DNA from: Bacillota bacterium
Lineage (GTDB): Bacteria; Bacillota; Clostridia; Acetivibrionales; DTU013
Direction of reading: 5' to 3'
Length of the DNA stretch: 57,983 nt
Assembly: GCA_023409615.1 (NCBI GenBank)
Contig: JAEYRF010000225.1
Span: forward strand, 1 to 57,983
The notes below the pieces were generated by a model, which had not been told where the DNA came from, did not search any database, and saw nothing but the letters and a program-made list of their open reading frames with translations. Of this stretch, positions 26,570-57,983 are shown one piece after another. Positions within the stretch are counted from its first letter, which is position 1, and each line of letters starts with the position of its first letter. The translations under genes and the position numbers were made by a program.

Positions 26570-26582
26570 GGGGGACTGGATA

Positions 26583-37270: not shown

Positions 37271-37735
37271 ATGAAAAGAATTAGTTTGATTTTAGTCCTT
37301 ATTTTTATCATAGTCATATCGTCTGGATGCAATCTTTTCTCACAATCAAATAGCACGAATAACCCGGGTATGCCAACAAAGCAGCAGACGGAGGTGCTGT
37401 CGTCTCAAGAGGCTGTCGGGAATACATCGTCGGATAATATACAAGTACCGTCTAATGATACACAGACGGATGACAAATCGCAGCAAGAAATAAAGATCGA
37501 TACAGGAACCTATCAGGGGCAAATTGACAGCAACTTTATAGAAATTGCTATTTCGGGCGTTCCTGAAGAAAATGCAACAAAGGTATTTATGTTATTCGGT
37601 GAGCTCAAAGAGAAATTTGATGAAATGCAGCTTAGCACCGGTGAGGGTATTACGTTTCAGTATTTCATCAATGAAGCTGAGCAGAATGTTATTAGGAAAA
37701 TTCAAAGGCTGGATAGAGAGAGTGATGATAAATGA
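37271..37735 (+). CDS. Putative lipoprotein
   Basis: 154-aa ORF with GGAGG RBS. The signal peptide has a lipobox-like VISSGC. A Ser/Thr/Gln-rich linker follows, then a small globular domain. Confidence 0.65.
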   Translation: MKRISLILVLIFIIVISSGCNLFSQSNSTNNPGMPTKQQTEVLSSQEAVGNTSSDNIQVPSNDTQTDDKSQQEIKIDTGTYQGQIDSNFIEIAISGVPEENATKVFMLFGELKEKFDEMQLSTGEGITFQYFINEAEQNVIRKIQRLDRESDDK

Positions 37736-37944
37736 GTGAATTTACTTTAACAACCGACATCATCCTCATGTTGCTTCCTCTGGCGGCAATACAGATAGGT
37801 CTTGCGATTTACTGTACTGTAATAATCTTCAGAGAAGGCGTTCAGAATCTCAACAAGTGGGTATGGGCTGCAATATGTCTGTTTATTAATTTGTTGGGAC
37901 CCATCACCTTCCTGATAGTTGGCAGAAAGAAGGAATATCGATGA
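37732..37944 (+). CDS. Small two-TM membrane protein, PLDc_N (cardiolipin-synthase N-terminal-like) family, YxlE-like
   Basis: 70-aa ORF that is ATGA-coupled at both ends. The pattern LPLAAIQIGLAIYCTVII...NKWVWAAICLFINLLGPITFLIVGRK is typical of PLDc_N peptides found next to ABC transporters. Confidence 0.65.
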   Translation: MSEFTLTTDIILMLLPLAAIQIGLAIYCTVIIFREGVQNLNKWVWAAICLFINLLGPITFLIVGRKKEYR

Positions 37945-38843
37945 TAACTGTAAAGGGACTGCACAAGAAATTCAAAGGCTTTCATGCTCTCAGAGGTGTG
38001 GATATGCATGTTAAAAAAGGTGAAATATATGGTTTCATCGGGCATAATGGAGCGGGAAAGTCGACTGCGATGAGCATACTTGCGGGGCTATCCCGACCAA
38101 CGCAGGGGGAATGCATTGTTAATGGAAGAAACATTTCGGAAATAAAGCATCCCGGCGACCTGCATATCGGGTATCTTCCTGAAGATCCAAGGTTTTACTC
38201 GTGGATGACAGCATATGAGATGCTTGAACATCTCGGAAGCGGCATTAGTCGGGGGCGTATTGCTGAAATGCTGGAATGGGTTGGGCTTGCTGATGCGGCC
38301 GGCCGCCGGGTTGGAGGATTTTCGAGAGGTATGAGGCAGCGGCTTGGAATTGGAGCCGCATTGATACGTAACCCGGATGTGCTTATTCTTGATGAGCCAT
38401 CCTCCGCACTTGACCCCGAGGGACGCAGTGATGTATTGCGCCTCATTGCGGAAATGAAGCACATGAGCAAAACGGTCTTATTCTCCACACATATCCTTAG
38501 CGATGTGGAACGCATCTGTGATACGGTCGGTATGATATCAGACGGTAGCATTGTAATGGAAAAGCCCCTTGAAAAGCTACAAAGAGACAATATACGGCCT
38601 GTTTTTGATATAATTCTGACGGAGCCGTGTAATCCTGATATTACAACAAAGCTTCTGGAGCTTGATACTGTATTGGGAGCAGCATTCACAGGGAATACAT
38701 TAACAATAACGACGTCCGAAGAGGCAGAAGCCTCAAGAAGCCTCCTGCGATTTTTTGCCGATCATGGAACAGCTGTCCGTTCGTTCGGGCTAAGAAAAAA
38801 TAATTTGGAGGAGCTATATATACAGGAGGTGAAGTCATTATGA
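37941..38843 (+). CDS. ABC transporter ATP-binding protein
   Basis: Walker A is GHNGAGKST, the signature is FSRGMRQRL, and Walker B is VLILDEPSS. Confidence 0.9.
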   Translation: MITVKGLHKKFKGFHALRGVDMHVKKGEIYGFIGHNGAGKSTAMSILAGLSRPTQGECIVNGRNISEIKHPGDLHIGYLPEDPRFYSWMTAYEMLEHLGSGISRGRIAEMLEWVGLADAAGRRVGGFSRGMRQRLGIGAALIRNPDVLILDEPSSALDPEGRSDVLRLIAEMKHMSKTVLFSTHILSDVERICDTVGMISDGSIVMEKPLEKLQRDNIRPVFDIILTEPCNPDITTKLLELDTVLGAAFTGNTLTITTSEEAEASRSLLRFFADHGTAVRSFGLRKNNLEELYIQEVKSL

Positions 38844-39613
38844 TGCAGTATATCGGAAAGGAACTAAAATTTGGCTTTCGCAGCGGAAAGCTATTGATTT
38901 TGGCGGCAAGTTTTCTGTTTTTTGCTTTGTTGACGCCTGTTATGCTCAAGATTGTTTTGCCTCAGATACTTCAAAGCCAGGGAGTACCATCGGAAGACCT
39001 TTCGGGAATAATGAGCATGACACAAACGGCTTGTATTCAAATCTATATGAACGATGTCTTTGAAATTGGTACAATTATTATTGCATTTACCCTGTGTGGT
39101 CTGCTGGCGCAGGAGATACGTGATAACACCCTGGTTCTGCCTCTTTGTTCAGGCAGACACTTTGTCTGTATTGTCGGCGGAAAGCTTTCAGTCTTTGGCT
39201 TAGCTTTGATTATGATACCGGTTATTGCATTGATTGTCAATTACCTATATGCAGGGCTGCTTTACTCCTATGAAACAGAATTGCTTCCAATCCTGCGAGC
39301 CGGAACACTGCAAGGCATATACATGGTGTTTTTACTTTCCTGTATTATGATGTGGGGTGCAATTCTAAAAAAGCCTGTTCCTGCAGGGTTTTTAACACTT
39401 GCTTCATCCTTTGGTCTGCATTTTGCCGGAGGACTGTTGGGAATTCATCAATGGCTGCCATCAGGGCTGCTTATTCAGGCACAGCGTCTAACGGAAGCGC
39501 TTGAGCTGTCTGTGTTTTTCACACTGGCTGTCACTATTGCTTTAATAATTATCATGGCCGTTTTTACTGTGATGCGCCTGAAAAGCATCGAATGGAACGA
39601 ACGGCAGGCTTAG
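38840..39613 (+). CDS. ABC-2-type transporter permease
   Basis: 257-aa ORF with about six TM helices. It is ATGA-coupled to the ATPase gene. Confidence 0.75.
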   Translation: MMQYIGKELKFGFRSGKLLILAASFLFFALLTPVMLKIVLPQILQSQGVPSEDLSGIMSMTQTACIQIYMNDVFEIGTIIIAFTLCGLLAQEIRDNTLVLPLCSGRHFVCIVGGKLSVFGLALIMIPVIALIVNYLYAGLLYSYETELLPILRAGTLQGIYMVFLLSCIMMWGAILKKPVPAGFLTLASSFGLHFAGGLLGIHQWLPSGLLIQAQRLTEALELSVFFTLAVTIALIIIMAVFTVMRLKSIEWNERQA

Positions 39614-44187: not shown

Positions 44188-44437
44188 AGTGTTATCCTTT
44201 GTATTTAATTATTTTATAGTGATTCTAATAATATATTTGGCAAAGGCCGTAAGATTTGCAAGGTAATTACCAGAAAACATAAATTACATCTTTTATTATA
44301 TCAATGCCTATAAAGCATTTCAATAAATGAAAAGAAAATGAAATATAAGGGAAACAAACAAAAGAGACATCATCCATCAACTACAGATGCAGCTGTGGAG
44401 GTGTCCCCCTTTTTCATGAGCACATTGTTATAGACTG

Positions 44438-44587
44438 TTATTCTTTATAGTATCCTTCGTCTTCTCTTCCGAATATCCCCGGGAATATCAGGAGAATCAC
44501 AAGAATAATGATAATGATCCAGATCCAACTGTTCCCTCCACCTCCGCATCCTAAACCGAATAGTCCACCTCTCTCATTGTCTGCCAT
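44438..44587 (-). CDS. 49-aa Gly-rich/hydrophobic mini-protein (YjcZ-like small sporulation-type peptide, tentative)
   Basis: Not in the ORF track. The product is MADNERGGLFGLGCGGGGNSWIWIIIIILVILLIFPGIFGREDEGYYKE, with AAAGGGG upstream of the ATG. Confidence 0.5.
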   Translation of the reverse strand: MADNERGGLFGLGCGGGGNSWIWIIIIILVILLIFPGIFGREDEGYYKE

Positions 44588-44703
44588 GTAATACAACCCC
44601 TTTCATATAATAAAATTACTATTCAACCAATTAAGTAAGATCTTATCAAGCCAGTTACTGTCCAATACACTCTATATCATATTCAGCCCATCATTTTTGT
44701 GTT

Positions 44704-44738
44704 ACCAAAAAGCGAAACCACCCCTTAAGGGTGGCTTC
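44704..44738 (-). terminator. Rho-independent terminator after the 32-aa mini-ORF
   Basis: The minus strand reads gaagccaccc-ttaag-gggtggtttc followed by gcttttt. Confidence 0.6.
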
Positions 44739-44786
44739 TTCTAATCTCATGTAATGCAACCGGCTTTTCCTTTTCTGTCTTTCCTA

Positions 44787-44885
44787 TCAGCAGAGATCTC
44801 TATCAAAGAACAGCAGCAGGAATAGAATAATAAAGAATAAAATAGCGCAATTGTCACCCAGGAAATTACCGCCTCTTTCTGCCAT
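44787..44885 (-). CDS. 32-aa hydrophobic mini-protein, paralogous in N-terminus to 44438..44587
   Basis: Not in the ORF track. The product is MAERGGNFLGDNCAILFFIILFLLLFFDRDLC. AAGGAGG lies 9 nt upstream of the ATG and a terminator follows. Confidence 0.5.
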   Translation of the reverse strand: MAERGGNFLGDNCAILFFIILFLLLFFDRDLC

Positions 44886-45104
44886 TACGGAGTCCTCCTT
44901 TCGACCAGAGAGTTAACATAAATTTTCTGTACTAATTCAATTTATTCTTCTTTAGTAGAAAGTGTTACAGTTTAGACAGATTCTAAAGCCGGACCTTCGC
45001 ATCATGTCTTCCCTGTCAATACCATTATATTAGCTCTGTGCCCAGTAGGTGACAGTAAACTTAGCGGAATGAGATATCGAAGTTATTACAAGAAAACATG
45101 ATTT

Positions 45105-45133
45105 TTTACAAATTTATATAAATACTATATAAT
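45105..45133 (+). promoter_or_regulatory. Sigma-A-type promoter of the PilZ gene
   Basis: TTTACA-17 nt-TATAAT, about 30 nt upstream of the ATG at 45165. Confidence 0.6.
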
Positions 45134-45164
45134 AGTTACAACAGAAAAATCAAAGAGGTGTGTT

Positions 45165-45776
45165 ATGCTGGAAGTTGGTTCGGTAATCACCATCAGACAT
45201 TATTCCATGACGAGTGTTTTTAAAAGCATCATATTGGATGTAAGTACATACTCAATTGAGGTAAAGCTGCCAAAGGAATGTATGAATGCGGTGTTCCTGC
45301 CCGGTGATCCGCTAGTCGTAGCATATGAGACCGGAAATTCCGCTGAAATCAAGGGTGGCAGGATTATTGATTTCAACAGACAGAATGAACTGCTGGCCTT
45401 CTCCGAAGACACCTATGATGAGGGTATGAGAATGAGGTCATACAATCGCTTCCCCGTGTCACTCTATGCCGATTACAGGGTCATTGAGGGATACGTAAAC
45501 AATAAGAATTTTGCACTTGTGAAGGATATCAGCGAGTATGGACTTATGGTTTATTCTAATAATAACCACTTCAAGGGTACGAAGATGAATATGGATATTT
45601 ATCTCACCAGGGATGTTTTGACCCTGACTGCCGAAATTGCTAGAAAAGTCGAGCATGATGGCTATTATGAATATGGGTTGAAAATCAAACATGAAGGTCC
45701 CTATGTGTTCAATCACATCAAAAATTTCGTCAAAAAATATGAAAATGAGCTCCTCGGGCCCTATGCAAGGGATTAG
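45165..45776 (+). CDS. PilZ-domain (c-di-GMP receptor) protein
   Basis: 203-aa ORF with AGAGGTG RBS. The two halves of the PilZ c-di-GMP motif are RSYNR (RxxxR) and DISEYG (D/NxSxxG), separated by about 30 residues. Confidence 0.75.
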   Translation: MLEVGSVITIRHYSMTSVFKSIILDVSTYSIEVKLPKECMNAVFLPGDPLVVAYETGNSAEIKGGRIIDFNRQNELLAFSEDTYDEGMRMRSYNRFPVSLYADYRVIEGYVNNKNFALVKDISEYGLMVYSNNNHFKGTKMNMDIYLTRDVLTLTAEIARKVEHDGYYEYGLKIKHEGPYVFNHIKNFVKKYENELLGPYARD

Positions 45777-45845
45777 AGAACGGGGAAGCTGTCAAAACAA
45801 AATGGGAGTTCCTAATATATTTAGAAAAAAATAGAATATTAGCAA

Positions 45846-45874
45846 TTGACATATGGGAATATCTTACATATAAT
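45846..45874 (+). promoter_or_regulatory. Perfect-consensus sigma-A promoter of the tad operon
   Basis: TTGACA (45846..45851), a 17-nt spacer, then TATAAT (45869..45874). Confidence 0.75.
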
Positions 45875-45963
45875 TAGAAGCGCAACCATATTATTACATT
45901 TTGCTGTCAGAATTCGTGCGAGAATACCGACAGTTTAAGCCGGGGGTGAGCGCTTTGGGAAGA

Positions 45964-47202
45964 ATGAGCATAATTATTGTAGATAATGATATAGAATATC
46001 TGGCGAATCTTGAAAAATTTCTGCTTGTCAATTATCCGCAACGTTTTGAATTATTTACATTCTCTTCAGCAGATAAACTAACTGACTTTTTTAAGCACAA
46101 GCAAAGCATTGACATATTGATCATCAGCAGCCAAATCTATAGAAAAGATATGAAGACTGTAAAAGCTGAACTTTCACTGATTCTTCTGGAGGATAGCAAT
46201 TTCAGGGCGCCAAAGGCAGGTGTACTGTCGCCAAATTGTGAGAGACTGTCTGCCGAGGGAGAGAGGCAGTCTGCCGAAGTGACAGGTGTCATTGAAACAA
46301 TATATAAGTATCAGCATATGGACAAGCTGGTGTCAGAAATTATTAGACTATATTCTGAAAAAAGTCTCAAAAACATCTCAATAACAGGACAGGGAAATAC
46401 ACGGGTCGTCGGCGTTTATTCTCCGTCAGGTGGAACCGGGAGCAGCAGTATTGCAGCAGGATGCAGCATTTTGTGCGCTGGGAGGGGAGTGAGATCCTTC
46501 TATCTGAACATGGAGGTAATCCCGTCCACGGACCTGTTTTTCAATGGGGACTGTGCAAGAACCTTTTCCAATGTGATTTTTCATCTGAAAGGGAAGGGTG
46601 ATAATCTGCAGCTCAAATTGGAAGGCGCAAAATGTGTAGATACTAAATCAGGTGTTCATTATTTCAAGCCTCCGGAGAGCATACTGGAGTTGAATGAATT
46701 GACTGATCTTGAGATTGAATATCTGGTGAGCGGGCTAAAAAACAGTGCAGTTTATGATTATGTTTTCATTGATATGTCTTCAGGACTCAACTCCTTTAAC
46801 ACGGCAATATTACCGCTTGCGGATGTAATTTTACTGGTGATTGATCAAGATCGCCGAACTATGATCAAACTTGAGAAATTTCGGGCGGGACTGAACTTAC
46901 TGGAGCATAAAAGCGGGATAGGTATTGCCAATCGGATCATTCCGGTATTGAACCGCTTTGATGGCAGAAGTGAGGCTGTCAAACAAATCGCTCACCTCAA
47001 AGGCTGCAGGCCGATGATAGCACTCGGTGATTGCTCCCGCCCTGAAGCTGCTGACGCCGGTACTGCTGCTATTGCTGGTATTGTCACCTCTCCGGTTGAA
47101 AACAAAGCATTTCTTACAGGATTGAACAGTATAATGGAGAACTTTTCATTCTGTTCCAGTGTTAATAAGGTTATTCCTAACGGGGGTGAAAATATTGCTT
47201 GA
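45964..47202 (+). CDS. tadZ: TadZ/CpaE-like pilus-assembly ATPase: an atypical receiver-like N-domain plus a MinD/ParA-type domain
   Basis: The ORF opens at TTG 45901 and the first ATG is at 45964 (MSIIIVDNDIEYL). The N-domain is receiver-like but has Ser rather than Asp at the end of beta-3 (IDILIISS). The deviant Walker A is VVGVYSPSGGTGSSSIAAG. Confidence 0.75.
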   Translation: MSIIIVDNDIEYLANLEKFLLVNYPQRFELFTFSSADKLTDFFKHKQSIDILIISSQIYRKDMKTVKAELSLILLEDSNFRAPKAGVLSPNCERLSAEGERQSAEVTGVIETIYKYQHMDKLVSEIIRLYSEKSLKNISITGQGNTRVVGVYSPSGGTGSSSIAAGCSILCAGRGVRSFYLNMEVIPSTDLFFNGDCARTFSNVIFHLKGKGDNLQLKLEGAKCVDTKSGVHYFKPPESILELNELTDLEIEYLVSGLKNSAVYDYVFIDMSSGLNSFNTAILPLADVILLVIDQDRRTMIKLEKFRAGLNLLEHKSGIGIANRIIPVLNRFDGRSEAVKQIAHLKGCRPMIALGDCSRPEAADAGTAAIAGIVTSPVENKAFLTGLNSIMENFSFCSSVNKVIPNGGENIA

Positions 47203-48496
47203 TGTGGATGCGCCGAACGGAGTAATGCTTGCTGAGGAAATCAGAAGAGAGATCACGCAAGGACTCGACCGGTCAAAAGATATTACAGACGATGAAGTCA
47301 TGGAGTTTGTCACGGAGGCTGTTTTTAGCAGATCAGCCAAAAAGTATTTAAGTATTGCTGAAAAGCATGATCTGGCGGAAATGGTCTTCAACTCAATGAG
47401 GCGGTTGGATATTCTTCAGCCTGTAATAGACGATAAAAGCATAACCGAGATTATGATAAATGGACCGGACAATCTTTTCATTGAACGTGCCGGCCATGTC
47501 TCCAGGTTGGAGCTTGGGTTCGAAAGCACAGAAAAGTTGGAGGATGTAATCCAGACTATTGTCTCAAGAACAAACAGAACTGTTAATGAAGCTTCACCTA
47601 TAGTGGATATTAGCCTTCCGGATGGTTCAAGGGTGAATGTTGTGTTAAAACCTGTTGCTCTGAACGGACCTATTATGACTATCAGAAAATTCCCGGATAA
47701 GCCAATAACGATGGAAAGGCTTGTTGAGACAGGATCGGTAAGTGCAGAAGCTGCAGAAGATCTAAGCTGTCTAGTGCGGGCGAAATACAACATCTTCATT
47801 TGCGGAGGAACCGGCTCAGGGAAGACTACTTTCCTTAACGCGCTGTCAGGAAGGATTCCCGGGGATGAAAGACTGATTACCATAGAGGATTCGGCTGAAC
47901 TGCAGATTGAGGGTGTGGATAACATAGTTCGTCTCGAGACCCGTAATGCAAACAGTGAGGGCAGAGGCAGGATTACAATTCGGGAGTTGATAAAAACATC
48001 GCTCAGGATGAGACCGGAGAGGATAATTGTTGGGGAGGTAAGGGGAGAAGAGGCGCTCGACATGCTGCAGGCAATGAATACCGGACATGACGGGTCGCTA
48101 TCTACAGGGCATGCCAATTCTGCTGCAGATATGCTAAAAAGGCTTGAGACCATGGTGCTTGCTGCTGCTCCACTGCCATTGGAGGCAGTCAGACAACAGA
48201 TTTCTTCTGCGATAAATATTATCATACATCTTGGGAGGCTTCGTGACAGGAGCAGGCGTGTATTGGAGATATGTGAGATCACTGGCTGCTGTAATGGCCA
48301 AATTCAGATGAACCCGCTTTACTTATTCGAAGAGATCGAGGCACTTGAACAAAAGCAAGCAAGCCGTAGAGATCCGGCAGGTGATGCTCTGCAGAGTTCA
48401 GTTAATGGATGCCTAAGTTGGACCGGGAACAGGCTGCTAAACACAGTTAAACTAAAAATGGCAGGTATACACTGCAGATTGAGTGGAGAGACGTGA
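47195..48496 (+). CDS. cpaF: CpaF/TadA-family secretion ATPase (T2SSE/VirB11-like)
   Basis: The ORF opens at 47159. The TTG at 47195 has GGGGGTGA 5 nt upstream and overlaps the tadZ stop by 8 nt, but the start is uncertain. Walker A is GGTGSGKTT, Walker B is RIIVGEVRGEEA, and the His box is GHDGSLSTGHAN. Confidence 0.9.
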   Translation: MLDVDAPNGVMLAEEIRREITQGLDRSKDITDDEVMEFVTEAVFSRSAKKYLSIAEKHDLAEMVFNSMRRLDILQPVIDDKSITEIMINGPDNLFIERAGHVSRLELGFESTEKLEDVIQTIVSRTNRTVNEASPIVDISLPDGSRVNVVLKPVALNGPIMTIRKFPDKPITMERLVETGSVSAEAAEDLSCLVRAKYNIFICGGTGSGKTTFLNALSGRIPGDERLITIEDSAELQIEGVDNIVRLETRNANSEGRGRITIRELIKTSLRMRPERIIVGEVRGEEALDMLQAMNTGHDGSLSTGHANSAADMLKRLETMVLAAAPLPLEAVRQQISSAINIIIHLGRLRDRSRRVLEICEITGCCNGQIQMNPLYLFEEIEALEQKQASRRDPAGDALQSSVNGCLSWTGNRLLNTVKLKMAGIHCRLSGET

Positions 48497-49239
48497 TGCA
48501 GGATTTTGACACTTATATTATGAGTTTACGTGAAAAAGTTCTATATACGGCTGTCGCGGGGGTTGCTATTTTCCTGATTGCTTATATTTTCTACAGAAGT
48601 GTTTTGCTTTCATTATTACTTATACCGCTTGCGCTGATATATCCGGGAGTAAAGTTAAAAGACATTATCAGGAAGCGGAAAAAAGAGCTTAATATTCAAT
48701 TCAAGGACTTGCTTTACTCGCTCTCATCTTCACTATCAGCCGGCAAGACAGTTGAGTCCGCATTCAGGGAAGCATTGAAGGATTTATCCGTCCTGTATCC
48801 TGAACCGTCGACTTATATTCTGATTGAGATACACAGGATTATAAGCAGACTTGATACAAATGAAACATTGGAACATGCCCTGTCAGACTTCGCAAGCCGT
48901 GCGAAACTGGAGGATGTTGATAACTTTGTAGATGTGTTCAATATCAGCAAGAGATCAGGCGGAAATATTGCAGAGGTAATCAAGAACACATCTGCCATCA
49001 TCAGTGACAGAATTGAGGTGGGGCAGGAGGTGGATACGATGCTTGCGGAGAGAAGATTTGAGCAAAAGGTGCTCAATATGGTACCAATTTTGATGATCTT
49101 ACTGCTGTCAGTCAGTGCACCAGATTATCTGAGCCCTGTATTCGATACAATTGCGGGCCGTCTTACAATGACCGCCTCCATAGCACTGTTGATTATTGCA
49201 TGGGTAATTACTGCAAAAATTAATGATATTAAAATGTGA
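48496..49239 (+). CDS. tadB: TadB-like inner-membrane platform protein (T2SSF family)
   Basis: The ATG overlaps the cpaF stop (TGATG). It has an N-terminal TM helix, the T2SSF-like segment QFKDLLYSLSSSLSAGKTVESAF, and C-terminal TM helices. Confidence 0.8.
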   Translation: MQDFDTYIMSLREKVLYTAVAGVAIFLIAYIFYRSVLLSLLLIPLALIYPGVKLKDIIRKRKKELNIQFKDLLYSLSSSLSAGKTVESAFREALKDLSVLYPEPSTYILIEIHRIISRLDTNETLEHALSDFASRAKLEDVDNFVDVFNISKRSGGNIAEVIKNTSAIISDRIEVGQEVDTMLAERRFEQKVLNMVPILMILLLSVSAPDYLSPVFDTIAGRLTMTASIALLIIAWVITAKINDIKM

Positions 49240-49247
49240 GGTTCTCG

Positions 49248-50108
49248 ATGATTTTAATTTTTATTGTGTACTCTTGTATATTAGCTGCAATTTTTTTGAT
49301 CTCACGCAATCAGTATATTGCAGTAATTGAACAATTGGATAAAAAGACCTATCCCTTGAAAAGTTTTTTTCCGGTTGGGTTATACCTGCTGGATACCTTT
49401 AAATATAGTTTCAATACCGGCTATGACCGAAGGCTGATATCGGCTATAGCTGAGCTTTATGATCACCGGCGTGCCGTCGCGCTGCTCAAAGTCCATTGGG
49501 GAAACAAGATATTGATGATTCTTTTATCTCTACTATTTGCTTTTTTTGTGGGTATTTTTGCCGAATTGGATATTGGATATGTGTTATTTTGTGTTGCTCT
49601 GCCAATTGGTATTGCGCTTTTTGGCGACAGAGATCTGTTTGAAAGGGTGAAAAAAAGAAGACTTGCTATTCAATCAGATTTTCCGGACTTTGTAAACAAG
49701 CTTACTCTTTTGATAAATGCAGGAATGACAGTTTCAAAGGCATGGGGGAAAATTGCGTCTGACAGCAATAGCCAGATGCCGTTGTATCTGGAGTTGATAT
49801 CGGCCTCAGCTGAAATAAGATCCGGAACTCCAGAGCAAAAGGCTTATGAAGAATTCGCGAAAAGGTGTCGTGTACCTGTAATTACACGTTTTATTTCTGT
49901 AATTCTACAGAACATCAAGAAGGGAAATGCTGAGCTTGTGCCTATCTTAAGGGTGTTTGCAAATGAGTGCTGGGAACTTCGCAAGAACACCGCTAAAAGG
50001 TATGGCGAAGAAGCCTCCACAAAACTATTGCTTCCAATGATGATGATGTTTGCGGCAATTTTACTTATTGTTGGTATGCCGGCGGTGCTGGCTTTAAAAA
50101 ATATGTAG
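49248..50108 (+). CDS. tadC: TadC-like inner-membrane platform protein (T2SSF family)
   Basis: The ORF opens at GTG 49236 and the ATG at 49248 follows GAGG. The T2SSF-like segment is DFPDFVNKLTLLINAGMTVSKAW. TM helices are present at both ends. Confidence 0.8.
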   Translation: MILIFIVYSCILAAIFLISRNQYIAVIEQLDKKTYPLKSFFPVGLYLLDTFKYSFNTGYDRRLISAIAELYDHRRAVALLKVHWGNKILMILLSLLFAFFVGIFAELDIGYVLFCVALPIGIALFGDRDLFERVKKRRLAIQSDFPDFVNKLTLLINAGMTVSKAWGKIASDSNSQMPLYLELISASAEIRSGTPEQKAYEEFAKRCRVPVITRFISVILQNIKKGNAELVPILRVFANECWELRKNTAKRYGEEASTKLLLPMMMMFAAILLIVGMPAVLALKNM

Positions 50109-50125
50109 GGATGGGGGTGAGTTGT

Positions 50126-50341
50126 ATGAGTTTACTGATAAAGAGGTTTATCAAGGAAGAGGACGGACTTGGCACGGTCGAAATTGTTGTTATTATTGCT
50201 GTTCTTGTAGGTATTGCTCTGATTTTCAGAGATGCAATCATCAATTTTGTGACTAGTATTATGAAAGGTGTATTCGATGATGATACCATTGCTAAGGATT
50301 TAAACAGCAGCAGTATCAGAAAAGACAATAAGATTAATTAG
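50126..50341 (+). CDS. flp: Flp1-type (type IVb, Tad) prepilin
   Basis: GGGGGTGA lies 5 nt upstream of the ATG at 50126 (the ORF opens at 50111). The product is MSLLIKRFIKEEDG-LGTVEIVVIIAVLVGIALIF... Cleavage after Gly would place Glu at +5, followed by a hydrophobic helix. The protein is 71 aa. Confidence 0.85.
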   Translation: MSLLIKRFIKEEDGLGTVEIVVIIAVLVGIALIFRDAIINFVTSIMKGVFDDDTIAKDLNSSSIRKDNKIN

Positions 50342-50374
50342 CATAAAAATTAATTGCCCGTACAATACCGGGAT

Positions 50375-50407
50375 GTGCTGCAGCTGTTGAAACTTTGGCT
50401 GCAGCGC
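50375..50407 (+). other. Stem-loop directly after the pilin gene, a possible attenuator or mRNA-stabilising hairpin
   Basis: gtgctgcagc-tgttgaaactttg-gctgcagcgc, with an 8-bp perfect core and no U-tract. Confidence 0.45.
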
Positions 50408-50436
50408 TCCCAAGCTGTTAAAAGGAGTTGAATCAT

Positions 50437-51870
50437 ATGGCTCAGGTACAAGAGCAGATGAAGGGTTTGACATATTTTTTTGAGAGTGAGGCATCAGCCA
50501 GTTTTCTTGTTGTTATATGTGAAACTAAGTTAATTGAGTATCAAATGCAAATGCTGGAGAATAATCCAATCAGGAATGTCATTCCGCCTGAGATGGTAAA
50601 AAAGGAAGGTGTAAACCACTTCTACTATAATGTTACATCAAAGATTTCTCTTTCCTTTTTCCTAAAAAGATATAAACTCAGCAGAGAAGAATTTCTGAAA
50701 CTGATCCTTCAAATTACTTCATCTGTAAGTGACGCATCCGGTTATCTATTAGGAAGTTCTAATTTCATTTTAGATCCGGACTATATCTATTTAAACCCTG
50801 AGACCCTTGAACCGGCATTGGTCTATGTCCCTGCGGCTATTAACCAGAATGGATGTGAAGTGCTGCAAGGCTTTATTTCTGATTTGCTTTTGATGCATAT
50901 CCATGTAGATGGTTTTGACAGGGGTAATTTTGTACAGAAAATACTGTCGGCAGTTAACAGTGACACCTTTAATATAAAAGGCTGCGTAGCCTTTTTAAAT
51001 GGACTAATGTATGGACATGAGGTGAATAACGTGTCGATACAGCCAGATGGGTCAATACAGCCAGATGGGTCAATACGGTCATCCGGATCAATAATACCAC
51101 CAGGTTATGGTGATAAAGATAGTATTTCGGCCTCAATAAATTACAAAAAAAATAAAAAAGAGGAAATAAAGGAAGAAATGAAGAATAAAACTGCTGATGG
51201 TAACAGGAGACTGTCTATTACAATTGCATCCGTATTACTGCAGTTTATTATGGGTGGTATTATCTACCTGGGCCGCGGATTTTTGCAGCAGATCGGTGAT
51301 AATCAGACTACTACATTTGTGGCAGTCGCAATGATCGTGCTTGCGGTAGATGTGCTTTTGTACAAAAAGATATCGGCTGCAAAACTTATATCTGTGAATA
51401 GTAAGTCAGGAGATTCTATGGAAGAAAAAGAAACGGATGAGGCAGAACCCGTGAGACTATCGCTGCCAAACCTGATACCGGACAATGCACTGGATCAGAT
51501 AGAGATATCAGCGATTAAGACTGAAAAGATTATTTGTGAGACAGAACTACTTGTCGGTAATAAAAGCGGAGGTTGCTTTCTGCGAAGTACAGGTAAACAT
51601 AGTGGCGATGAAGACATTACTATTGATAAAGATGATTTCATCATAGGCAGACTAGATGGGCATGTAGATTATATTCTTAACAACAATGCTGTTGGAAAGC
51701 TGCATACAGAGCTGATTAAGAGAAATGGTGCCTGCTTTGTAAAGGATTTGAATACTGTGAATGGAACTTTTATCAACAACACACGGATCGTTAGTAATAA
51801 AGAGGTAGAACTAAAGGAAAATGACAGACTGCGGTTGGCAAACAGCGAGTTTGTGCTGGTATACGAATAA
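50437..51870 (+). CDS. Membrane protein with an N-terminal domain of unknown function, two TM helices and a C-terminal FHA domain
   Basis: AAGGAG lies 9 nt upstream of the ATG at 50437. The TM segments are ITIASVLLQFIMGGIIYLG and FVAVAMIVLAVDVLLY. The FHA-like C-terminus is FIIGRLDGHVDYILNNNAVGKLHTELIKRNGACFVKDLNTVNGTFINN. Confidence 0.8.
   Translation: MAQVQEQMKGLTYFFESEASASFLVVICETKLIEYQMQMLENNPIRNVIPPEMVKKEGVNHFYYNVTSKISLSFFLKRYKLSREEFLKLILQITSSVSDASGYLLGSSNFILDPDYIYLNPETLEPALVYVPAAINQNGCEVLQGFISDLLLMHIHVDGFDRGNFVQKILSAVNSDTFNIKGCVAFLNGLMYGHEVNNVSIQPDGSIQPDGSIRSSGSIIPPGYGDKDSISASINYKKNKKEEIKEEMKNKTADGNRRLSITIASVLLQFIMGGIIYLGRGFLQQIGDNQTTTFVAVAMIVLAVDVLLYKKISAAKLISVNSKSGDSMEEKETDEAEPVRLSLPNLIPDNALDQIEISAIKTEKIICETELLVGNKSGGCFLRSTGKHSGDEDITIDKDDFIIGRLDGHVDYILNNNAVGKLHTELIKRNGACFVKDLNTVNGTFINNTRIVSNKEVELKENDRLRLANSEFVLVYE
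51034..51105 (+). repeat. Four tandem 18-bp units inside the FHA gene (SIQPDG SIQPDG SIRSSG SIIPPG)
   Basis: tcgatacagccagatggg / tcaatacagccagatggg / tcaatacggtcatccgga / tcaataataccaccaggt. The first two units differ at one base. Confidence 0.85.
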
Positions 51871-51916
51871 TTGTTGCTCTGGAGGTATTAAAAAAAATTA
51901 TTTCAGGGGGAGTAAA

Positions 51917-53230
51917 ATGACAAGTAAAATTCAGATATGGTGTTTGAAAGCAGAAGTGAGAAAATGCGTGGAGATTCTGTTGTTGATTGTTTTTATTTCC
52001 ATGACAATATTCTGTACCTCGGGGCGGGCTTTTGCAGAGAACCAGGAGGAAACAATATCCCCCGCCCCCAGCCCGGAGGAACAGATGAATGAAACGCTTT
52101 ACCGGATAAGGCCTATGCAGGACAGGCTGGGATCTATGGATGCGGCCTCTATCGACGGCTATGTCAATAAGTATGCTGATATGAATTCTCATTGGAGCAG
52201 AGCAGCGGTCGGAAAACTGTCCGGGCTTGATATTATAGCTGGTTATGGTGGTAAGTTCCGGCCTGACTCACCTGTTCAGGCGGACCAGTTTATCAAAATG
52301 GCTGTGATGGCAATGGGCCACAAAATTGAGCAGGGTACAGAGTATTGGGCACAGCCTTATATAGATACCGCTTTAAGCGAAGGGCTTGTGGATAAGGGCG
52401 AATTTGTTGATTACAAAGTGCCATTGAGCCGCGAGCAGATGGCAAGGATTATTGTGCGGACTATGCTGAAGGTGGATGAAAAACCAGATGATAGATACGA
52501 TAAATACATCATTGGGAAGATTTCTGATTATGAAAAGGTTTCAGACAATTTGAAGCAGTTTGTGATTGACGGCTATAGGTTGGGATTGGTACAAGGCTCT
52601 GCTGATAAATATAATCCAAAGTCTACTTTGACGAGAGCGGAGGCTGCCGCAGTCATCATACGCTTTCTGGATGCGACTGAGCGGAAGCCGATGGCGCCGG
52701 GACCGGATGAAGTGATCGAGCTTGTTGATAACCTTGGTAATCCCATGGAGATTTATCCGGGAAATATAGCGGAATACTTTGAAATTGAAAAGGTTATGCG
52801 AGACGCTATACCAAAGGCAAAAGGGTATGCTCCGTTTTTTTACAGCCCTGAAACTGGAGCAGTTTGTGTTGTTTTTTATGAAAGTCATGAAGCATGGCAA
52901 CAGGATAGCACAATAAATAAAATTGCTACATTTAGGTCAAACAACATATACAAAGAGCCGGGCAATTCATACGCATATACCTTATCAGTCTGGAACAGGC
53001 AGTTGTATAAAGAGCTGTTTGTGGACTATATGCACGAGATATTAAAGGCACTATATGGAGAAGATGCAGATAAGGCTATCAGACTTCACGATAAATACAT
53101 GAATCTGACTTCAGGTAAGCCCGACGGGAGCAGCTATTACGAAACACCGCGGCTAAATGACAGATTTACAGAAATCAGAGGCGGCGGCAGCGGATTTTCA
53201 ATGCATATCAAGCTTTTTGGTGAGAAATAG
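51917..53230 (+). CDS. Secreted protein with three N-terminal SLH domains and a C-terminal domain of unknown function, encoded inside the tad cluster
   Basis: GGGGGAG lies 5 nt upstream of the ATG at 51917 (the ORF opens at 51821). The signal peptide ends SGRAFA-ENQ. The SLH repeats are NSHWSRAAVGKLSGLDIIAGYGGKFRPD..., YWAQPYIDTALSEGLVDKG... and VSDNLKQFVIDGYRLGLVQGSADKYNP...TRAEAAAVIIRFL. Confidence 0.8.
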   Translation: MTSKIQIWCLKAEVRKCVEILLLIVFISMTIFCTSGRAFAENQEETISPAPSPEEQMNETLYRIRPMQDRLGSMDAASIDGYVNKYADMNSHWSRAAVGKLSGLDIIAGYGGKFRPDSPVQADQFIKMAVMAMGHKIEQGTEYWAQPYIDTALSEGLVDKGEFVDYKVPLSREQMARIIVRTMLKVDEKPDDRYDKYIIGKISDYEKVSDNLKQFVIDGYRLGLVQGSADKYNPKSTLTRAEAAAVIIRFLDATERKPMAPGPDEVIELVDNLGNPMEIYPGNIAEYFEIEKVMRDAIPKAKGYAPFFYSPETGAVCVVFYESHEAWQQDSTINKIATFRSNNIYKEPGNSYAYTLSVWNRQLYKELFVDYMHEILKALYGEDADKAIRLHDKYMNLTSGKPDGSSYYETPRLNDRFTEIRGGGSGFSMHIKLFGEK

Positions 53231-53244
53231 TTTTTGGAGGTCTT

Positions 53245-56200
53245 ATGAATATAAAAATAATGAGTTACCGTATAATACCGGTATTTCTATCGGTTATAAT
53301 ACTCCTGACTGTTATATTGCTGACCAGCTTTTCGGCAGCTGGTGAGCCGAGATATGAAAGTCCCGGTATGACATTCATGGATGAGACAAAAGCGGGAAAG
53401 GATTTGTACGAAAAATACAAAATAGAGCTGCCGTCTCTTCCCGGCGGCGGAGTACCGCCCCAGTATATAACAGGTCCTGAGGGGACAAAGCTATACGTCA
53501 ATCTGAAGCTATGGCTGGATCATAGTATTCTTTGTTACGGTGAATGGTCGGATGTGCCCGACAACTATAAAACCAGTGGTACAGTTGGTTTTAAAAGTTC
53601 CACCCAAAAGCCGGGATATCCCGTCGAAAAGAATAAGGGGTACTATTTAAAAAATGGCAGGCGCGGAGAATACCGCTACCACGGCTATGACATCAATGGG
53701 AACAAGCTCACAAACCTATACTTTGAGGTAGACTCCTCTGTAACAAAGTTCGATGAAAGAGCATGGATTAAGAATCCGTGGGATGAATTACCACTCAGTT
53801 ATATGCACAAACCTGATCATGAAAGTATATACAACAATGCAGCCATAGGTTTTGACCCGTACCCTAATCCTGCTGTGCAACCGGGAGTGCAGAACTGGAT
53901 CAACAAGGCTATGCAGCTATACGGCGGTGTCCCGCTGATTGGAGCTGTCGTCGACCCGGAGGTATTCAGATATCTTTATGTGGAATCCGCACCTACGACT
54001 CTGGGCTTGGGACAGGGACGCATGTGGCACGAGAGGGATAACGGGTCGATATGGTACCAGACCATAGCGGTGCCTCAGCTCACAGAGAAGAAGAACCTGC
54101 CGGTAGAGGCTGAAATTGTATTACTTACAGAGCTGCCTGAGAACATTACGGACGTCGGTACTGCTATGGATGATATGGAAATAACTCTTGAATTTGAGGT
54201 TAGCGCTATCCTTAAGGATGATGACATATTTGATGACCCTGTTCAGCAGACCGTGTTCTATACAAGGTATGATATAAAGGATTGGAATATCACATTTTCG
54301 GCACCGGAGCAGACAGAACAGGCCGACCCGAAGGCAATTAACACAGTAAACAGAGGAAGCCGCAAATTTAGGTATACAACCACATACGGTTATCTGAAAG
54401 CACACAGCAAAAGTATAGGCGGCAAGACTACATGGAATCTCCACTTTACTGCCACTGCCAGGCCAAATTACAAGAATGGCAGCTATGGACTCATAGACAA
54501 CGCCGCATATGATCTCGGTATCGGAGTGGTGCAAGCTCCAGAACCGCCTGCTCAGGTAGTCGTGGGCTTTACGCCTGCTCCGGACATTCCTGAGATTGCT
54601 TTCGATGGTGTTCCTTTCACAGCAAGTGACATATCTGACATGTCAATCGTGGAATACCGAAAGGTATTTGTAGATGGTATTGAAGTGGATGGAAGCCAGT
54701 TTTTCTCCGGCAGCTATATTTTTCCCGGAGCAGTCGGAGTAAACGGACGGTTTGCATATGTGGACTGTGAGTATAAAGTGGAGGGCTTTCCATCTGAGAC
54801 CGGCAAAGCTGTTACAAGAGACGTGGTATATATCTATCCCACAAAGCCTATTGCTAACTATAAGATATCTTCTGATACATGGAAACAGAACAGGCTGATA
54901 AAAGTACAGGAAGCAAGCGACGAGGGAAATATTCGGCTTGTGATCGATAAATACCCGATAGTGGAGTATCAATGGACATTCGGCGGCAATACTTCGCAGC
55001 TTCGAAAAGGCGCTGATTCAGATATCTCAAAAGAGCTATTGTATAAAGAACCGGGTATATACTCGTTGACACTCAAGGTAAAGAATACCTTAGGCAAATG
55101 GTCCGATCCCTATAATGTTACATTTGAGGTGTTGGAGGATATCGCGCCGGCTGTTGGTGTAAATCTTTCAGAATCCGTATACACCCGTAACGATAAAGTG
55201 AGCGCCTGGTATTATCTTGCTGCCAGTACAGACGGCGACATAATTAAATCATCGGAGATAGAGCTATGGCATGACTCCGACAATGATGGCACAGTGGATA
55301 AAAAACTGAAGACATGGAGCAATCAGGATGAATTTCCTGCCTTCAATCCGACTAAACTGGGCTACTATAAATACATTATATCGGCGAAAGAAGACATCAT
55401 TGACGATACTCTATTTCAGTACATCACAGAGGAAGATAAAAAATCCGCAACATACGAAGTGGAGTTCTGGGTGGATAATTATCAGCCAATCAGCGATCTT
55501 TATGTCAATATTCCCATCCAGCGCCCGTCGATTGATGTATATTTCATGCTGGATAAAAACCTGTCTACCGAAAAGGCAGACTATATCAAAAGCAGCAGGG
55601 TGAATATGTCAAACTGGCTTCTGGGTAAAAACATCATACCAAATGTGAACATATGGGATATGAAGACCTATACCTACTCGCAACCCGCGAATACAAGTGT
55701 CAATACAGGTGAAAGTTATCCTTCAACAACATATGTTTATTCAAGCAGCGGGTATTCAGGAACACTAGAAAGGACAAGTGTATCGAATAACAGCTATTCG
55801 AGGGATCAGGGCAAGTATGAGACAAGACAAGAAAGCAAATCATTGTCACAAGCGGCCTCCAATACTAATTCAGTAACATATCGATGGTCAGGTAGTTCAT
55901 GGGTTCAGGTTGGTAAAGATGAAAGTCAGCTTCCATCCTCCAGATCCTACACAGACAGTAGTGGATACAGTGGAACGCTTCAGAAAAGTTCCGGTATCAA
56001 GACAGGAACGTCAGGTTCCGCACCTTCAAACCCAAATATTGGTCAAACCTATACCTATTACAGCTACTGGTCGTGTACTTACTCGGGCACTGTATACAGA
56101 ACTGTTAATGTGTGGGTTCCAAACATTGTATGGTACGACAATTATACCGGATATTACAGCGGAACGATTAATAAAAATGTTAGGCAGCCCTATACTGACC

Positions 56201-57983
56201 CATTTAAAGCAACTTCAGCAAAATATGTTGTATATATAAGTGACGGAGCCATTTCAGAGCCTTCTGACCTGAGCACAGTAATGGGTTATGCAAGTACAGC
56301 GAAGCTTTATCTGGCTGGAGCGGATGAAATAAAGACACAACGGGAGCATGACAAATATTTTTCAATGACTGATGAAACTATAGATGTTGTGCTCGATGAA
56401 ATACTTAATTATTTTTCATCGAACAGTCCTGATGTTGAGCGATTCTACCTGCTTCAGAATGAGAATTTCGTGATGAATGCAGGTCAACTGGATCTTGAAA
56501 ACGATCCGATTGTTGAGACTGGGATGCAGTATGTTCATGAAGCTAACTATTATGATAATCCTACCGGCAATGAACCGGGAACGGTTGTGGAATTTAATGA
56601 AAATATCGGCTGGAGCGCTACCGTAAAGTCAAGCCTTAGCAACGTGGGCAAATATACGGTATATCGAAGGGTAAAGGATAAGCCCACAACTGATCCGAAT
56701 TTTGCGCAATACTCATATTACTCAGGCAATACATCTCTTGAAATTTATGTGGTGCGCAAACCGATTGCCCTTGCGACACTTGATTGGGATTACGACACGT
56801 CATCAAGCATATACAAGACAACCTGGATTGATCAGTCCTATGACCCTGATCACCAGTACAGCCGGGCAGATAAGGGAATTGTGGAACGAAATATTATGTG
56901 GAAAAGGTCAGGAGGCCAATGGAATTATGGTATTCCTGATAACCTTACACCCGGGAATTATGAACTGAATTACTATGTGCTTGATCCTGAGGGATATTGG
57001 TCGGATCCGTTTACAATGAACTTTACCTTGTCTGAGGCGCCGTCTATACAATTTACTGCTGCATTGCGTACACTAAATAGTGATTTCAGTCTTTCAGGAA
57101 TTCCTGCATCAGAAAAGCTGGAGGCATTTAATCTATGGACTCGCCACCCGCAAAATGTAAAGCTTGAAATGGCTTTATACAATGGCGCTTCACGGGTCAG
57201 TCCATTAAAAACTGTTACTTTCGGCGAATCCACCGGAACAAGGGTGAATAATGATATTACATGGAGTAATGTAATCTATCAGATTCCAGAAACATTGCCG
57301 GATCGTGCTTATGATTTCAGAATCTCAGCAGTTGGAGACGACGGGCAAAGAACAGATAAGAGTTTTATAGTAAACGTTTCTACTCCATTGAAGCTTGAAC
57401 CGGTCATGCCCGCTGAGGTTAATGGCGGGGTAACTACAGAGGTATCAGCACATACAACAGAATATGCCGAAGATGTGAATGTCATATTGTTCTATGGGAC
57501 TCCATATGCAAGGCCGCCATACACTTTAACTGAATTTGAAAATGCAGCAGGCGGAGGTAAACTGTGGGAGGGAAGTCCTAATGTACTGACCGGTATACCT
57601 GAAGGAGACTATGTTGCCAGATTTACCGCAACTGCACCTAATGGGACAACTCAGTCAAGAAATTTATCTTTCACATTGGTGAATCTCGGCATATCAAATG
57701 TCAGTATTAGCGGCTACTGGAATCACTGGCGCGGGCAGGTTGACATTTTTGGTAAACGCCTGACTAATGAGCCACACAGATTCCTGTCTCTGGAACGTGT
57801 CAAAATTAATGTTTCAACTATTGGAGAACCCGAACGTGTCACTATACGTTTCAGCCCTGAGCTTGAGGCAATGCAATACACTGATCCGAAAGGCCATTCC
57901 TATGATTATGCAGAAGACTTCTTTGACTATGATGTAGCATTTCCTGAGGATTCAACTTTTTCGGGCTCAGCGAATTCTATAGC
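53245..57983 (+). CDS. Giant secreted or membrane-anchored protein (at least 1579 aa, 3' end beyond the window) with a PKD-like module and a possible split vWA-like region
   Basis: It is absent from the ORF track because no stop occurs. I read all 79 sequence lines from 53281 onward in frame 1 and found no TAA, TAG or TGA. GGAGG lies upstream of the ATG at 53245. The N-terminus is MNIKIMSYRIIPVFLSVIILLTVILLTSFSAAG. The PKD-like stretch is YQWTFGGNTSQL...GIYSLTLKVKNTLGKWSDPYNVTFEV. Confidence 0.85.
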   Translation, partial: MNIKIMSYRIIPVFLSVIILLTVILLTSFSAAGEPRYESPGMTFMDETKAGKDLYEKYKIELPSLPGGGVPPQYITGPEGTKLYVNLKLWLDHSILCYGEWSDVPDNYKTSGTVGFKSSTQKPGYPVEKNKGYYLKNGRRGEYRYHGYDINGNKLTNLYFEVDSSVTKFDERAWIKNPWDELPLSYMHKPDHESIYNNAAIGFDPYPNPAVQPGVQNWINKAMQLYGGVPLIGAVVDPEVFRYLYVESAPTTLGLGQGRMWHERDNGSIWYQTIAVPQLTEKKNLPVEAEIVLLTELPENITDVGTAMDDMEITLEFEVSAILKDDDIFDDPVQQTVFYTRYDIKDWNITFSAPEQTEQADPKAINTVNRGSRKFRYTTTYGYLKAHSKSIGGKTTWNLHFTATARPNYKNGSYGLIDNAAYDLGIGVVQAPEPPAQVVVGFTPAPDIPEIAFDGVPFTASDISDMSIVEYRKVFVDGIEVDGSQFFSGSYIFPGAVGVNGRFAYVDCEYKVEGFPSETGKAVTRDVVYIYPTKPIANYKISSDTWKQNRLIKVQEASDEGNIRLVIDKYPIVEYQWTFGGNTSQLRKGADSDISKELLYKEPGIYSLTLKVKNTLGKWSDPYNVTFEVLEDIAPAVGVNLSESVYTRNDKVSAWYYLAASTDGDIIKSSEIELWHDSDNDGTVDKKLKTWSNQDEFPAFNPTKLGYYKYIISAKEDIIDDTLFQYITEEDKKSATYEVEFWVDNYQPISDLYVNIPIQRPSIDVYFMLDKNLSTEKADYIKSSRVNMSNWLLGKNIIPNVNIWDMKTYTYSQPANTSVNTGESYPSTTYVYSSSGYSGTLERTSVSNNSYSRDQGKYETRQESKSLSQAASNTNSVTYRWSGSSWVQVGKDESQLPSSRSYTDSSGYSGTLQKSSGIKTGTSGSAPSNPNIGQTYTYYSYWSCTYSGTVYRTVNVWVPNIVWYDNYTGYYSGTINKNVRQPYTDPFKATSAKYVVYISDGAISEPSDLSTVMGYASTAKLYLAGADEIKTQREHDKYFSMTDETIDVVLDEILNYFSSNSPDVERFYLLQNENFVMNAGQLDLENDPIVETGMQYVHEANYYDNPTGNEPGTVVEFNENIGWSATVKSSLSNVGKYTVYRRVKDKPTTDPNFAQYSYYSGNTSLEIYVVRKPIALATLDWDYDTSSSIYKTTWIDQSYDPDHQYSRADKGIVERNIMWKRSGGQWNYGIPDNLTPGNYELNYYVLDPEGYWSDPFTMNFTLSEAPSIQFTAALRTLNSDFSLSGIPASEKLEAFNLWTRHPQNVKLEMALYNGASRVSPLKTVTFGESTGTRVNNDITWSNVIYQIPETLPDRAYDFRISAVGDDGQRTDKSFIVNVSTPLKLEPVMPAEVNGGVTTEVSAHTTEYAEDVNVILFYGTPYARPPYTLTEFENAAGGGKLWEGSPNVLTGIPEGDYVARFTATAPNGTTQSRNLSFTLVNLGISNVSISGYWNHWRGQVDIFGKRLTNEPHRFLSLERVKINVSTIGEPERVTIRFSPELEAMQYTDPKGHSYDYAEDFFDYDVAFPEDSTFSGSANSI

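Follow-up and report, generated by a model that had tools for sequence, protein, structure and literature searches.

A stretch of 57,983 nt from contig JAEYRF010000225.1 (the window) carries towards its 3′-end a Tad/Flp locus, which we consider likely to be a functional, core-only Tad/Flp (type IVc) pilus operon. A DUF6382-FHA membrane protein would act as its hub and a PilZ protein as an input, while an SLH-domain protein and a giant exoprotein at the end of the locus would make up a separate cassette. The host belongs to a lineage of monoderm, S-layer-bearing Clostridia which, judged by the nearest relatives, is Acetivibrionales- or Hungateiclostridiaceae-like and inhabits anaerobic digesters. 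The features of the locus are all on the + strand and are given below with coordinates of the whole window.

45105..45133, +, sigma-70-type promoter TTTACA-17-TATAAT ahead of the PilZ gene (11/12 consensus positions)
45165..45776, +, PilZ-domain protein, 203 aa, predicted cyclic di-GMP (c-di-GMP) receptor (PF07238, E 2.4e-7)
45846..45874, +, promoter of the tad operon, perfect TTGACA-17-TATAAT (12/12 consensus positions)
45955..47202, +, TadZ, receiver-like and MinD/ParA-like domains (PDB 3FKQ, 2.7e-31; scaffold gene call)
47195..48496, +, CpaF/TadA secretion ATPase, TTG start (T2SSE 3.8e-58; TIGR03819 6e-87)
48496..49239, +, TadB platform protein (T2SSF 8.6e-7)
49248..50108, +, TadC platform protein (T2SSF 8.7e-9)
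50126..50341, +, Flp1-like prepilin, 71 aa (PF16982, 5.6e-17)
~50370..50411, +, stable stem-loop after flp, no T-run (minimum free energy -30.6 kcal/mol)
50437..51870, +, DUF6382-FHA membrane protein, 477 aa (DUF6382, PF19909, 5e-28; FHA, PF00498, 2e-12)
51917..53230, +, SLH-domain protein, 437 aa (SLH 1.3e-16)
53245..57983, +, giant secreted protein, 1579 aa up to the contig end (NF047340, 1.6e-39)

The assignment to the Tad/Flp1 type, made in a preliminary description of the sequence, was borne out by the matches to T2SSE, to T2SSF in two genes, to Flp1_like and, for TadZ, to 3FKQ. Residues 40-341 of TadZ matched this Eubacterium rectale TadZ structure across both domains, and the P-loop SPSGGTGSS was without lysine, as in 3FKQ. 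The Pfam matches of TadZ were weak, to TadZ-like_ARD (27.3 bits vs the 27.4-bit cut-off) and to AAA_31. CpaF reached 292 bits against TIGR03819 (TadA family), which is under the 373-bit equivalog cut-off, and the platform pair was evident from a T2SSF match in each of two adjacent genes, tadB and tadC. The Flp prepilin displayed the leader MSLLIKRFIKEEDG with predicted cleavage before LGTVEIVV (EEDG/LGTVEIVV). Leader and cleavage site were near-invariant in 40+ loci of the three layouts (types A, B and C) described below, and Flp as a whole was 76-79% identical in the loci L003-L005.

The perfect promoter at 45846-45874 was the top-scoring site across positions 44200-53400. Downstream of it, the tadZ stop codon (47200-47202) and the TTG start of cpaF (47195) give an 8-nt overlap, the TGATG at 48494-48498 combines the cpaF TGA with the tadB ATG, and 8 nt separate the tadB stop from the tadC ATG at 49248. 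Alternative starts are a TTG at 45901, upstream of 45955, for tadZ and a GTG at 49236 for tadC; the stored gene calls for the source scaffold (ENA ERZ28597484, scaffold_326) gave identical coordinates. The hairpin behind flp had a z-score of -3.3 and none of 200 shuffles was as stable. Without a T-run it was not called as a terminator, and it is probably an attenuator or mRNA stabiliser rather than a full terminator. The spacers after flp in six loci, a partial survey, were structured and non-homologous. Both promoters, the start overlaps and the hairpin, all of them read from the window in the preliminary description, were thus confirmed on the sequence.

Relatives were sampled as one genome per species, which yielded 50 Clostridia loci including Acetivibrio, Ruminiclostridium, Hungateiclostridiaceae and many metagenome-assembled genomes (MAGs), and were compared by our own open reading frame (ORF) calling and clustering. 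In type A (23 genomes) the order was UvrD and transglutaminase genes as the flank, then PilZ, TadZ, CpaF, TadB, TadC, Flp and FHA, optionally the SLH protein and the giant, and finally PRPP synthetase, DUF975 and rhomboid-like genes. The ORFs of type A were intact across the 23 species-level genomes, and this held in a clade where the FHA protein had diverged to 34-68% identity. Types B and C (15 genomes, e.g. Ruminiclostridium papyrosolvens and Acetivibrio mesophilus) have between flp and the FHA gene a TadE-like gene, a gene for a DUF5702 protein (715-1121 aa) whose N-terminus is TadG-like, another TadE-like gene and one or two Peptidase_A24 genes. In a neighbour-joining (NJ) tree of CpaF, type A formed one clade apart from types B and C. 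The tad loci of Clostridia thus come in at least two conserved layouts, one full (TadE-like, DUF5702, A24) and one core-only. Much is known, as far as we are aware, about the Tad pili of diderms and of Actinobacteria, and hardly anything about those of Clostridia.

Two further observations were made on the layouts. The DUF975 and rhomboid-like genes were found 3′ of all type A tad regions, with or without the SLH-giant cassette, and this position is probably plain synteny; the rhomboid-like protein (L013:18631-19464 and homologues) is polytopic with a C-terminal Cys-rich, zinc-ribbon-like tail and a weak Rhomboid match (2.7e-4). In Ruminiclostridium papyrosolvens C7, a TadE-like pseudopilin (L042:8353-9399) with the class III-type N-terminus RGSITVEAA… ends in a CDI_toxin_EC869_like, nuclease-like domain (PF21111, 9.5e-15). 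This family was also detected in L006, L034, L039, L041, L043, L047, L049, L050, L055 and L056, which are fuller tad loci, and a toxin domain carried on a pilin would be reminiscent of the contact-dependent killing known from Tad-like systems.

That the window holds no prepilin peptidase, no pseudopilins and no TadG had been stated in the preliminary description, and the observation proved right for the window as well as for 27 related loci, in some of which DNA beyond the giant is visible. A Pfam scan of the other 26 large ORFs in the window yielded neither peptidase A24 nor TadE nor a TadG-like protein, and a regular-expression scan of its six frames found no G-xxxx-E leader besides that of Flp, again as described earlier. 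Hidden Markov models (HMMs) were built from the type B families A24, two TadE-like (c9 and c11) and DUF5702. At a threshold of E <= 0.01 they gave no match in 6264 six-frame ORFs from 552 kb of 27 type A loci, the whole window included. On control loci the same HMMs scored 1e-37 to 1e-304 for their own families (the A24 HMM 1e-37 to 1e-48). Because HMMs derived from type B find nothing in the type A loci yet match the control loci, the reduced gene set is a stable property of the lineage and not an accident of this contig.

The giant gene runs off the contig end in every assembly of the source organism that was read, the source scaffold and a second assembly, and the preliminary description had allowed for tadV, tadE, tadF or tadG immediately beyond the window. 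Orthologous contigs have none of them there. The closest genome, L003 (MAG GCA_023435745.1), is collinear with the window from UvrD through the giant at 62-85% identity, and since it continues 3′ of the giant with a DUF975 gene, a rhomboid-like gene and then opposite-strand genes, no such gene is expected just past the window edge. The rhomboid-like gene is the sole membrane-protease-like gene near the locus. Since the Flp cleavage site is conserved in all layouts, the type A Flp is likely still processed, presumably by an A24 peptidase whose gene lies at another place in the genome. A tadV gene at a distance from the tad locus is the normal state in other Tad systems of monoderms, e.g. that of Bifidobacterium breve.

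An addition to the core that was found throughout the lineage is the DUF6382-FHA protein, whose tie to the tad locus, suggested in the preliminary description, held up. In 38 of the 50 genomes the stretch that was retrieved had tad genes along with the FHA gene, in both the full and the core-only layout, and the four homologues that were looked up (68%, 44%, 35% and 30% identity) were all directly downstream of tad genes (4/4 contigs). More than 100 homologues have the DUF6382-FHA architecture. The remaining FHA loci were mostly short contigs or had an A24 peptidase adjoining the FHA gene. Gene neighbourhoods thus identify the DUF6382-FHA protein as a genuine conserved partner of clostridial tad loci. 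A PP2C phosphatase gene lies directly 3′ of the FHA gene in L028, L031 and L053. In L033 (5917-12119), and likewise in the Acetivibrio-like loci L035, L036, L051 and L031, the FHA gene was observed between a gene for a 1250-aa GGDEF-STAND-NTPase-TPR protein and an A24 peptidase gene; no tad ATPase was detected within 10 kb of these loci. Such loci ("type D", with the FHA gene and the 1250-aa protein) were considered as an instance of the published type VII secretion system (T7SS) context and rejected, the Pfam domains of the large protein being GGDEF, STAND NTPase and TPR and not those of EssC.

The 477-aa protein consists of DUF6382 (aa 10-190), a linker, two transmembrane helices (aa 257-314), a second linker and, at the C-terminus, an FHA domain (aa 380-476). 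An AlphaFold2 model based on 70 homologues placed aa 10-190 at a predicted local distance difference test score (pLDDT) above 90, the helices at 257-278 and 290-314, and the linkers in disorder. Foldseek with the full-length model gave FHA matches alone, and DUF6382 was therefore modelled separately (pLDDT 91, predicted template modelling score 0.88). Its best PDB match was 8CBA, the N-terminal part of TraF (TraF-N) of the pIP501 type IV secretion system (T4SS) (E 9e-7), and below it ranked dozens of Hanks-type kinases and the Rv3910 pseudokinase. By this confidently modelled predicted fold DUF6382 is a pseudokinase, because its invariant columns in the 70-sequence alignment contain no catalytic Lys or Asp. 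In the FHA domain G404-R405, H423 and N442-G443-T444 are conserved, but an almost invariant Gly420 stands where the phosphate-binding Ser would be (VGKLH, not SxxH). An invariant T369 with a nearly invariant L372 (T-x-x-L) falls within the disordered linker, some 10 residues ahead of the FHA domain, and is, by analogy with GarA/OdhI, a possible self- or trans-binding phospho-motif.

The PilZ protein has the motifs RSYNR (RxxxR) and DISEYG (DxSxxG) intact, and RSY(N/E)R with DIS(E/D)(Y/H)G was found in 14/14 aligned homologues; a PDB sequence search with the protein found nothing. The gene was found ahead of tadZ in 12 genome loci of type A and in none of type B or C. As type A genomes also have unrelated flanking genes in common, its position is weak evidence. 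Among tad loci the PilZ gene was thus restricted to type A, and the c-di-GMP input through PilZ proposed in the preliminary description is plausible.

The SLH protein and the giant had been proposed as parts of the machine, and this part of the preliminary description was not sustained: the cassette is missing beside intact tad genes in five genomes, present without tad nearby in at least three genomes, and without homology to the TadG-like or TadE-like proteins of the fuller loci. The SLH protein has a signal peptide, SLH repeats (two stretches above threshold, with aa 143-249 aligning to Sap SLH structures) and a conserved C-terminal domain of unknown fold. The giant has a Sec signal peptide, an Athe_2463 domain at aa 86-273 (136.2 bits vs a cut-off of 36), Ig/PKD-like repeats and a weak PKD match; a PDB sequence search with it found nothing. 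Its orthologue in L003 is 1754 aa long and 75% identical, with the window copy alignable as far as residue 1694. An exhaustive representative search defined the giant family, with 152 representatives of the Athe_2463 N-terminal domain at 50% clustering, of which about 70 were full-length giants with Sec signal peptides. Because an SLH protein of 400-490 aa precedes the giant homologue by 14-30 nt wherever upstream DNA is present, the gene order defines the two as a two-gene unit. The idea that the giant or the SLH protein is a TadG or TadE that has diverged was also considered and rejected, hhalign against DUF5702 and the TadE-like families giving probabilities of about 1%.

The gene neighbourhoods asked for in the preliminary description showed that the pair occurs without tad, and tad without the pair. 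Five type A genomes (L005, L014, L015, L023 and L045) lack the cassette and have an intact tad-FHA region with the same flanks, and these five are scattered over the CpaF tree. Among four distant giants that were looked up, those of L077, L078 and L079 have an SLH partner, form full-length orthologous pairs and are free of tad genes for 10 kb in both directions. Another such pair, that of L062, is also full-length and lies behind metabolic genes, and the 8.6 kb of upstream DNA that was readable contains no tad gene. In an NJ tree of the giants, those of type A fell in two groups, interleaved with giants of other contexts, and were not monophyletic. The fourth distant giant (L076:571-15310) is 40% identical to that of the window and lies directly 3′ of a very divergent Tad-like cluster. 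This cluster encodes a TadZ-like protein of 386 aa, an ATPase of 493 aa with 25% identity to CpaF, two polytopic proteins (322 and 293 aa) and a hydrophobic, pilin-like ORF of 49 aa without an obvious G-xxxx-E site, and it is interrupted by an RRXRR/HNH gene.

In the window the spacers are 46 nt between the FHA and SLH genes and 14 nt between the SLH gene and the giant. Given these spacers, and with no good promoter in between, the window cassette is probably co-transcribed with tad. Co-transcription is co-regulation and not evidence of membership in the pilus. Most economically, the two are read as a surface-protein cassette of their own that rides at the end of the operon, and not as pilus parts. 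SLH proteins are otherwise frequent in the window, with five more at 66-1949(+), 2103-6227(-), 7991-11518(+), 15823-17367(+) and 17849-20233(-), and the further SLH proteins carry InlB B-repeat-like, fn3 and RCC1 domains. The source organism clearly has an S-layer-type envelope.

Several points weigh against the account of a core-only pilus with a separate cassette. The giant of L076 behind a Tad-like cluster is an unexplained recurrence that leaves room for a functional tie, and the gap between the FHA and SLH genes is short and conserved (~45-60 nt), with no promoter above 9/12 in the last 400 nt. No peptidase or minor pilin was located for the source organism in the contigs compared, and a peptidase gene elsewhere in its genome is therefore assumed. 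With Gly at the position of the phosphate-binding Ser, phosphothreonine binding by the FHA domain is uncertain, and with respect to such phosphorylation the Pfam scans of the window ORFs revealed no kinase or phosphatase gene. The comparisons themselves are based on contigs of MAGs, which extend no more than 10 kb to either side, on ORFs called crudely and on NJ trees that carry no support values. As a whole the account is a comparative inference on uncultured organisms; it sharpens hypotheses and settles no open question.

The first of these points bears on the possibility that the SLH protein and the giant are lineage-specific pilus parts, a conduit or anchor in the wall or S-layer and a tip or associated adhesin, which would replace TadE, TadF and TadG. 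The L076 arrangement, the same strand and the short, conserved spacings would fit this explanation, as would the pair behind tad-FHA in at least 10 complete and about 9 truncated genome loci and about 15 metagenome loci, in a type that lacks TadG-like and TadE-like genes. We nevertheless regard it as unlikely, given the five cassette-less genomes with intact tad-FHA, the orthologous pairs away from tad (L077-L079) or behind metabolic genes (L062), and a family of giants in which those of type A are not monophyletic and whose diversity (~70 clusters at 50% identity) far exceeds that of the type A clade. The signal of the giant is moreover an ordinary Sec peptide, not a class III leader, and hhalign detected no relationship between it and DUF5702 or the TadE-like families. 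There is a slim chance that the pared-down Tad core inserts, extends or displays the giant, or drives a short Flp stalk through the S-layer for it; if true, type IV filament machinery would here serve monoderms in a new way, with a pseudokinase-FHA hub and c-di-GMP as the gate.

The absence of A24, TadE and TadG genes from 552 kb of type A loci could alternatively mean that the operon has lost its peptidase and minor pilins, builds no filament and is decaying or idle. L004, with a truncated cpaF and no tadZ, and L038, which looks fragmented, would agree with such a remnant. Intact ORFs in a clade with so diverged an FHA protein, the well-conserved Flp of L003-L005 with its invariant cleavage motif, the perfect promoter with its coupled starts and the ordinariness of a remote tadV in monoderms make this highly improbable. 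A third possibility, a Tad-derived machine that is not adhesive, e.g. a signalling-gated export or contact-dependent device like Kil of Myxococcus, draws on the over-representation of FHA proteins in Kil (PMC8460266), on the DUF6382-FHA components of T7SSe/T7SSf (PMC11217815) and on the TadE-like pseudopilin fused to a CDI-toxin EC869-like nuclease domain in the sister type B loci. The toxin-like pseudopilin is exactly what type A lacks, however, no toxin, immunity or effector-like gene was found in the type A locus or the window, and Flp is a typical short Flp1-like pilin, so that we hold this possibility to be quite unlikely too.

The working of the preferred core-only Tad/Flp pilus may be depicted as follows: One strong promoter would drive tadZ-cpaF-tadB-tadC-flp, with translationally coupled junctions that fit a fixed stoichiometry, and the hairpin behind flp would probably tune the amount of transcript continuing downstream. 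Flp would first be cleaved at the conserved G/LGTVE by the A24 peptidase presumed to be encoded elsewhere, and CpaF would then power the TadB/TadC platform for Flp polymerisation. The FHA protein, predicted to be a hairpin membrane protein with pseudokinase and FHA domains both facing the cytoplasm, could by analogy with EssB/YukC and TraF be the membrane interaction hub of the machine. Ser/Thr phosphorylation, with T369-x-x-L as a candidate site, may control its association with TadZ, CpaF or itself, and the upstream PilZ protein may add a second-messenger input. The cassette, a Sec-exported, wall-anchored SLH partner and the giant exoprotein, would have become lodged at the 3′-end of the operon in the type A clade. 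Pilus and surface protein would thus be deployed together by the cell, and neither would need the other.

Elsewhere in the window, two tiny Gly-rich hydrophobic peptides are encoded at 44438-44596(-) and ~44840-44890(-), between the transglutaminase gene and PilZ, with a bidirectional terminator-like hairpin at 44714-44738. The 52-aa one of the two was conserved in at least seven related loci. The window peptides resemble, as we take it, YjcZ-type sporulation peptides. Two alike modules at 23510-28860 and 35053-39613 each combine a histidine kinase (HisKA_3) and a response regulator of LuxR type with an ABC ATPase and membrane proteins, which in the first module are of ABC-2 type; both resemble sets for sensing and exporting peptides or antibiotics.

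Among known systems, the giant is comparable through its N-terminal domain to Athe_2463 of Caldicellulosiruptor bescii, the namesake of NF047340, which is a secreted protein of unknown function encoded in an operon with Athe_2464 (PMC5865380). The domain is common to both proteins. Compared by description, the window giant belongs to a family of 1.6-1.9 kaa with Ig/PKD-like repeats that is always paired with an SLH protein. The cassette of an SLH protein and a giant Athe_2463-domain protein was defined here as a widespread element of S-layer-bearing Firmicutes.

DUF6382-FHA proteins have been described as TseJ/TsfJ of T7SSe/T7SSf (Microlife 2024, PMC11217815). TsfJ has, like the window protein, two transmembrane helices, which places both domains in the cytoplasm (PMC11217815). 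Unlike the TseJ/TsfJ genes, the window FHA gene is in a tad context, the window contains neither an EssC-like ATPase nor WXG100 or YukD-like genes, and no recognisable T7SS was found beside the FHA gene among the 50 genome homologues. No paper in the literature searched links the family to Tad loci. The combination of genes, suggested earlier to be uncharacterised, is so in that literature, whereas its DUF6382-FHA component was already known from T7SSe/T7SSf.

The fold leads to a second group of relatives, as TraF is a pseudokinase homologous to YukC/EssB, the interaction hub of the T7SSb (PMC13037476). EssB/YukC and TraF of pIP501 have, like the FHA protein, a pseudokinase fold, a membrane anchor and a gene in the operon of a secretion machine. 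EssB and TraF have one transmembrane helix and an extracellular C-terminal domain, whereas the FHA protein has a transmembrane hairpin and a cytoplasmic FHA domain. Sequence identity between DUF6382 and TraF/EssB is about 14%, and homology is suggested by the fold alone. The FHA protein has relatives assigned to T7SS variants and a fold that matches the hubs of T7SS and of a Gram-positive T4SS. If it is indeed a hub, a single scaffold principle would be common to three Gram-positive envelope machines that are unrelated to one another, and the assembly of Tad would be coupled to Ser/Thr phosphorylation and also, in the core-only clade, via PilZ to c-di-GMP.

FHA proteins are also over-represented in Kil, the Tad-like killing apparatus of Myxococcus xanthus (PMC8460266), which is like the window locus a Tad-derived machine with FHA-domain proteins, suggesting phospho-signalling control. 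Kil differs in being the system of a diderm with a secretin, in the fusion of FHA to the ATPase and in having pseudopilins and peptidase, and its FHA-bearing proteins are non-homologous to that of the window outside the FHA domain.

Finally, TadZ, CpaF/TadA, TadB, TadC and a Flp with a G/xxxxE leader are common to the window locus, the clostridial Tad of the E. rectale type and the canonical Tad/Cpa systems of Aggregatibacter and Caulobacter, and the tightly coupled operon is likewise common to the window and canonical systems. The window locus is without secretin or Rcp proteins, as expected for a monoderm. Unlike the canonical Tad/Cpa systems it is without TadV, TadE, TadF and TadG, and it adds the pseudokinase-FHA protein and the PilZ gene.

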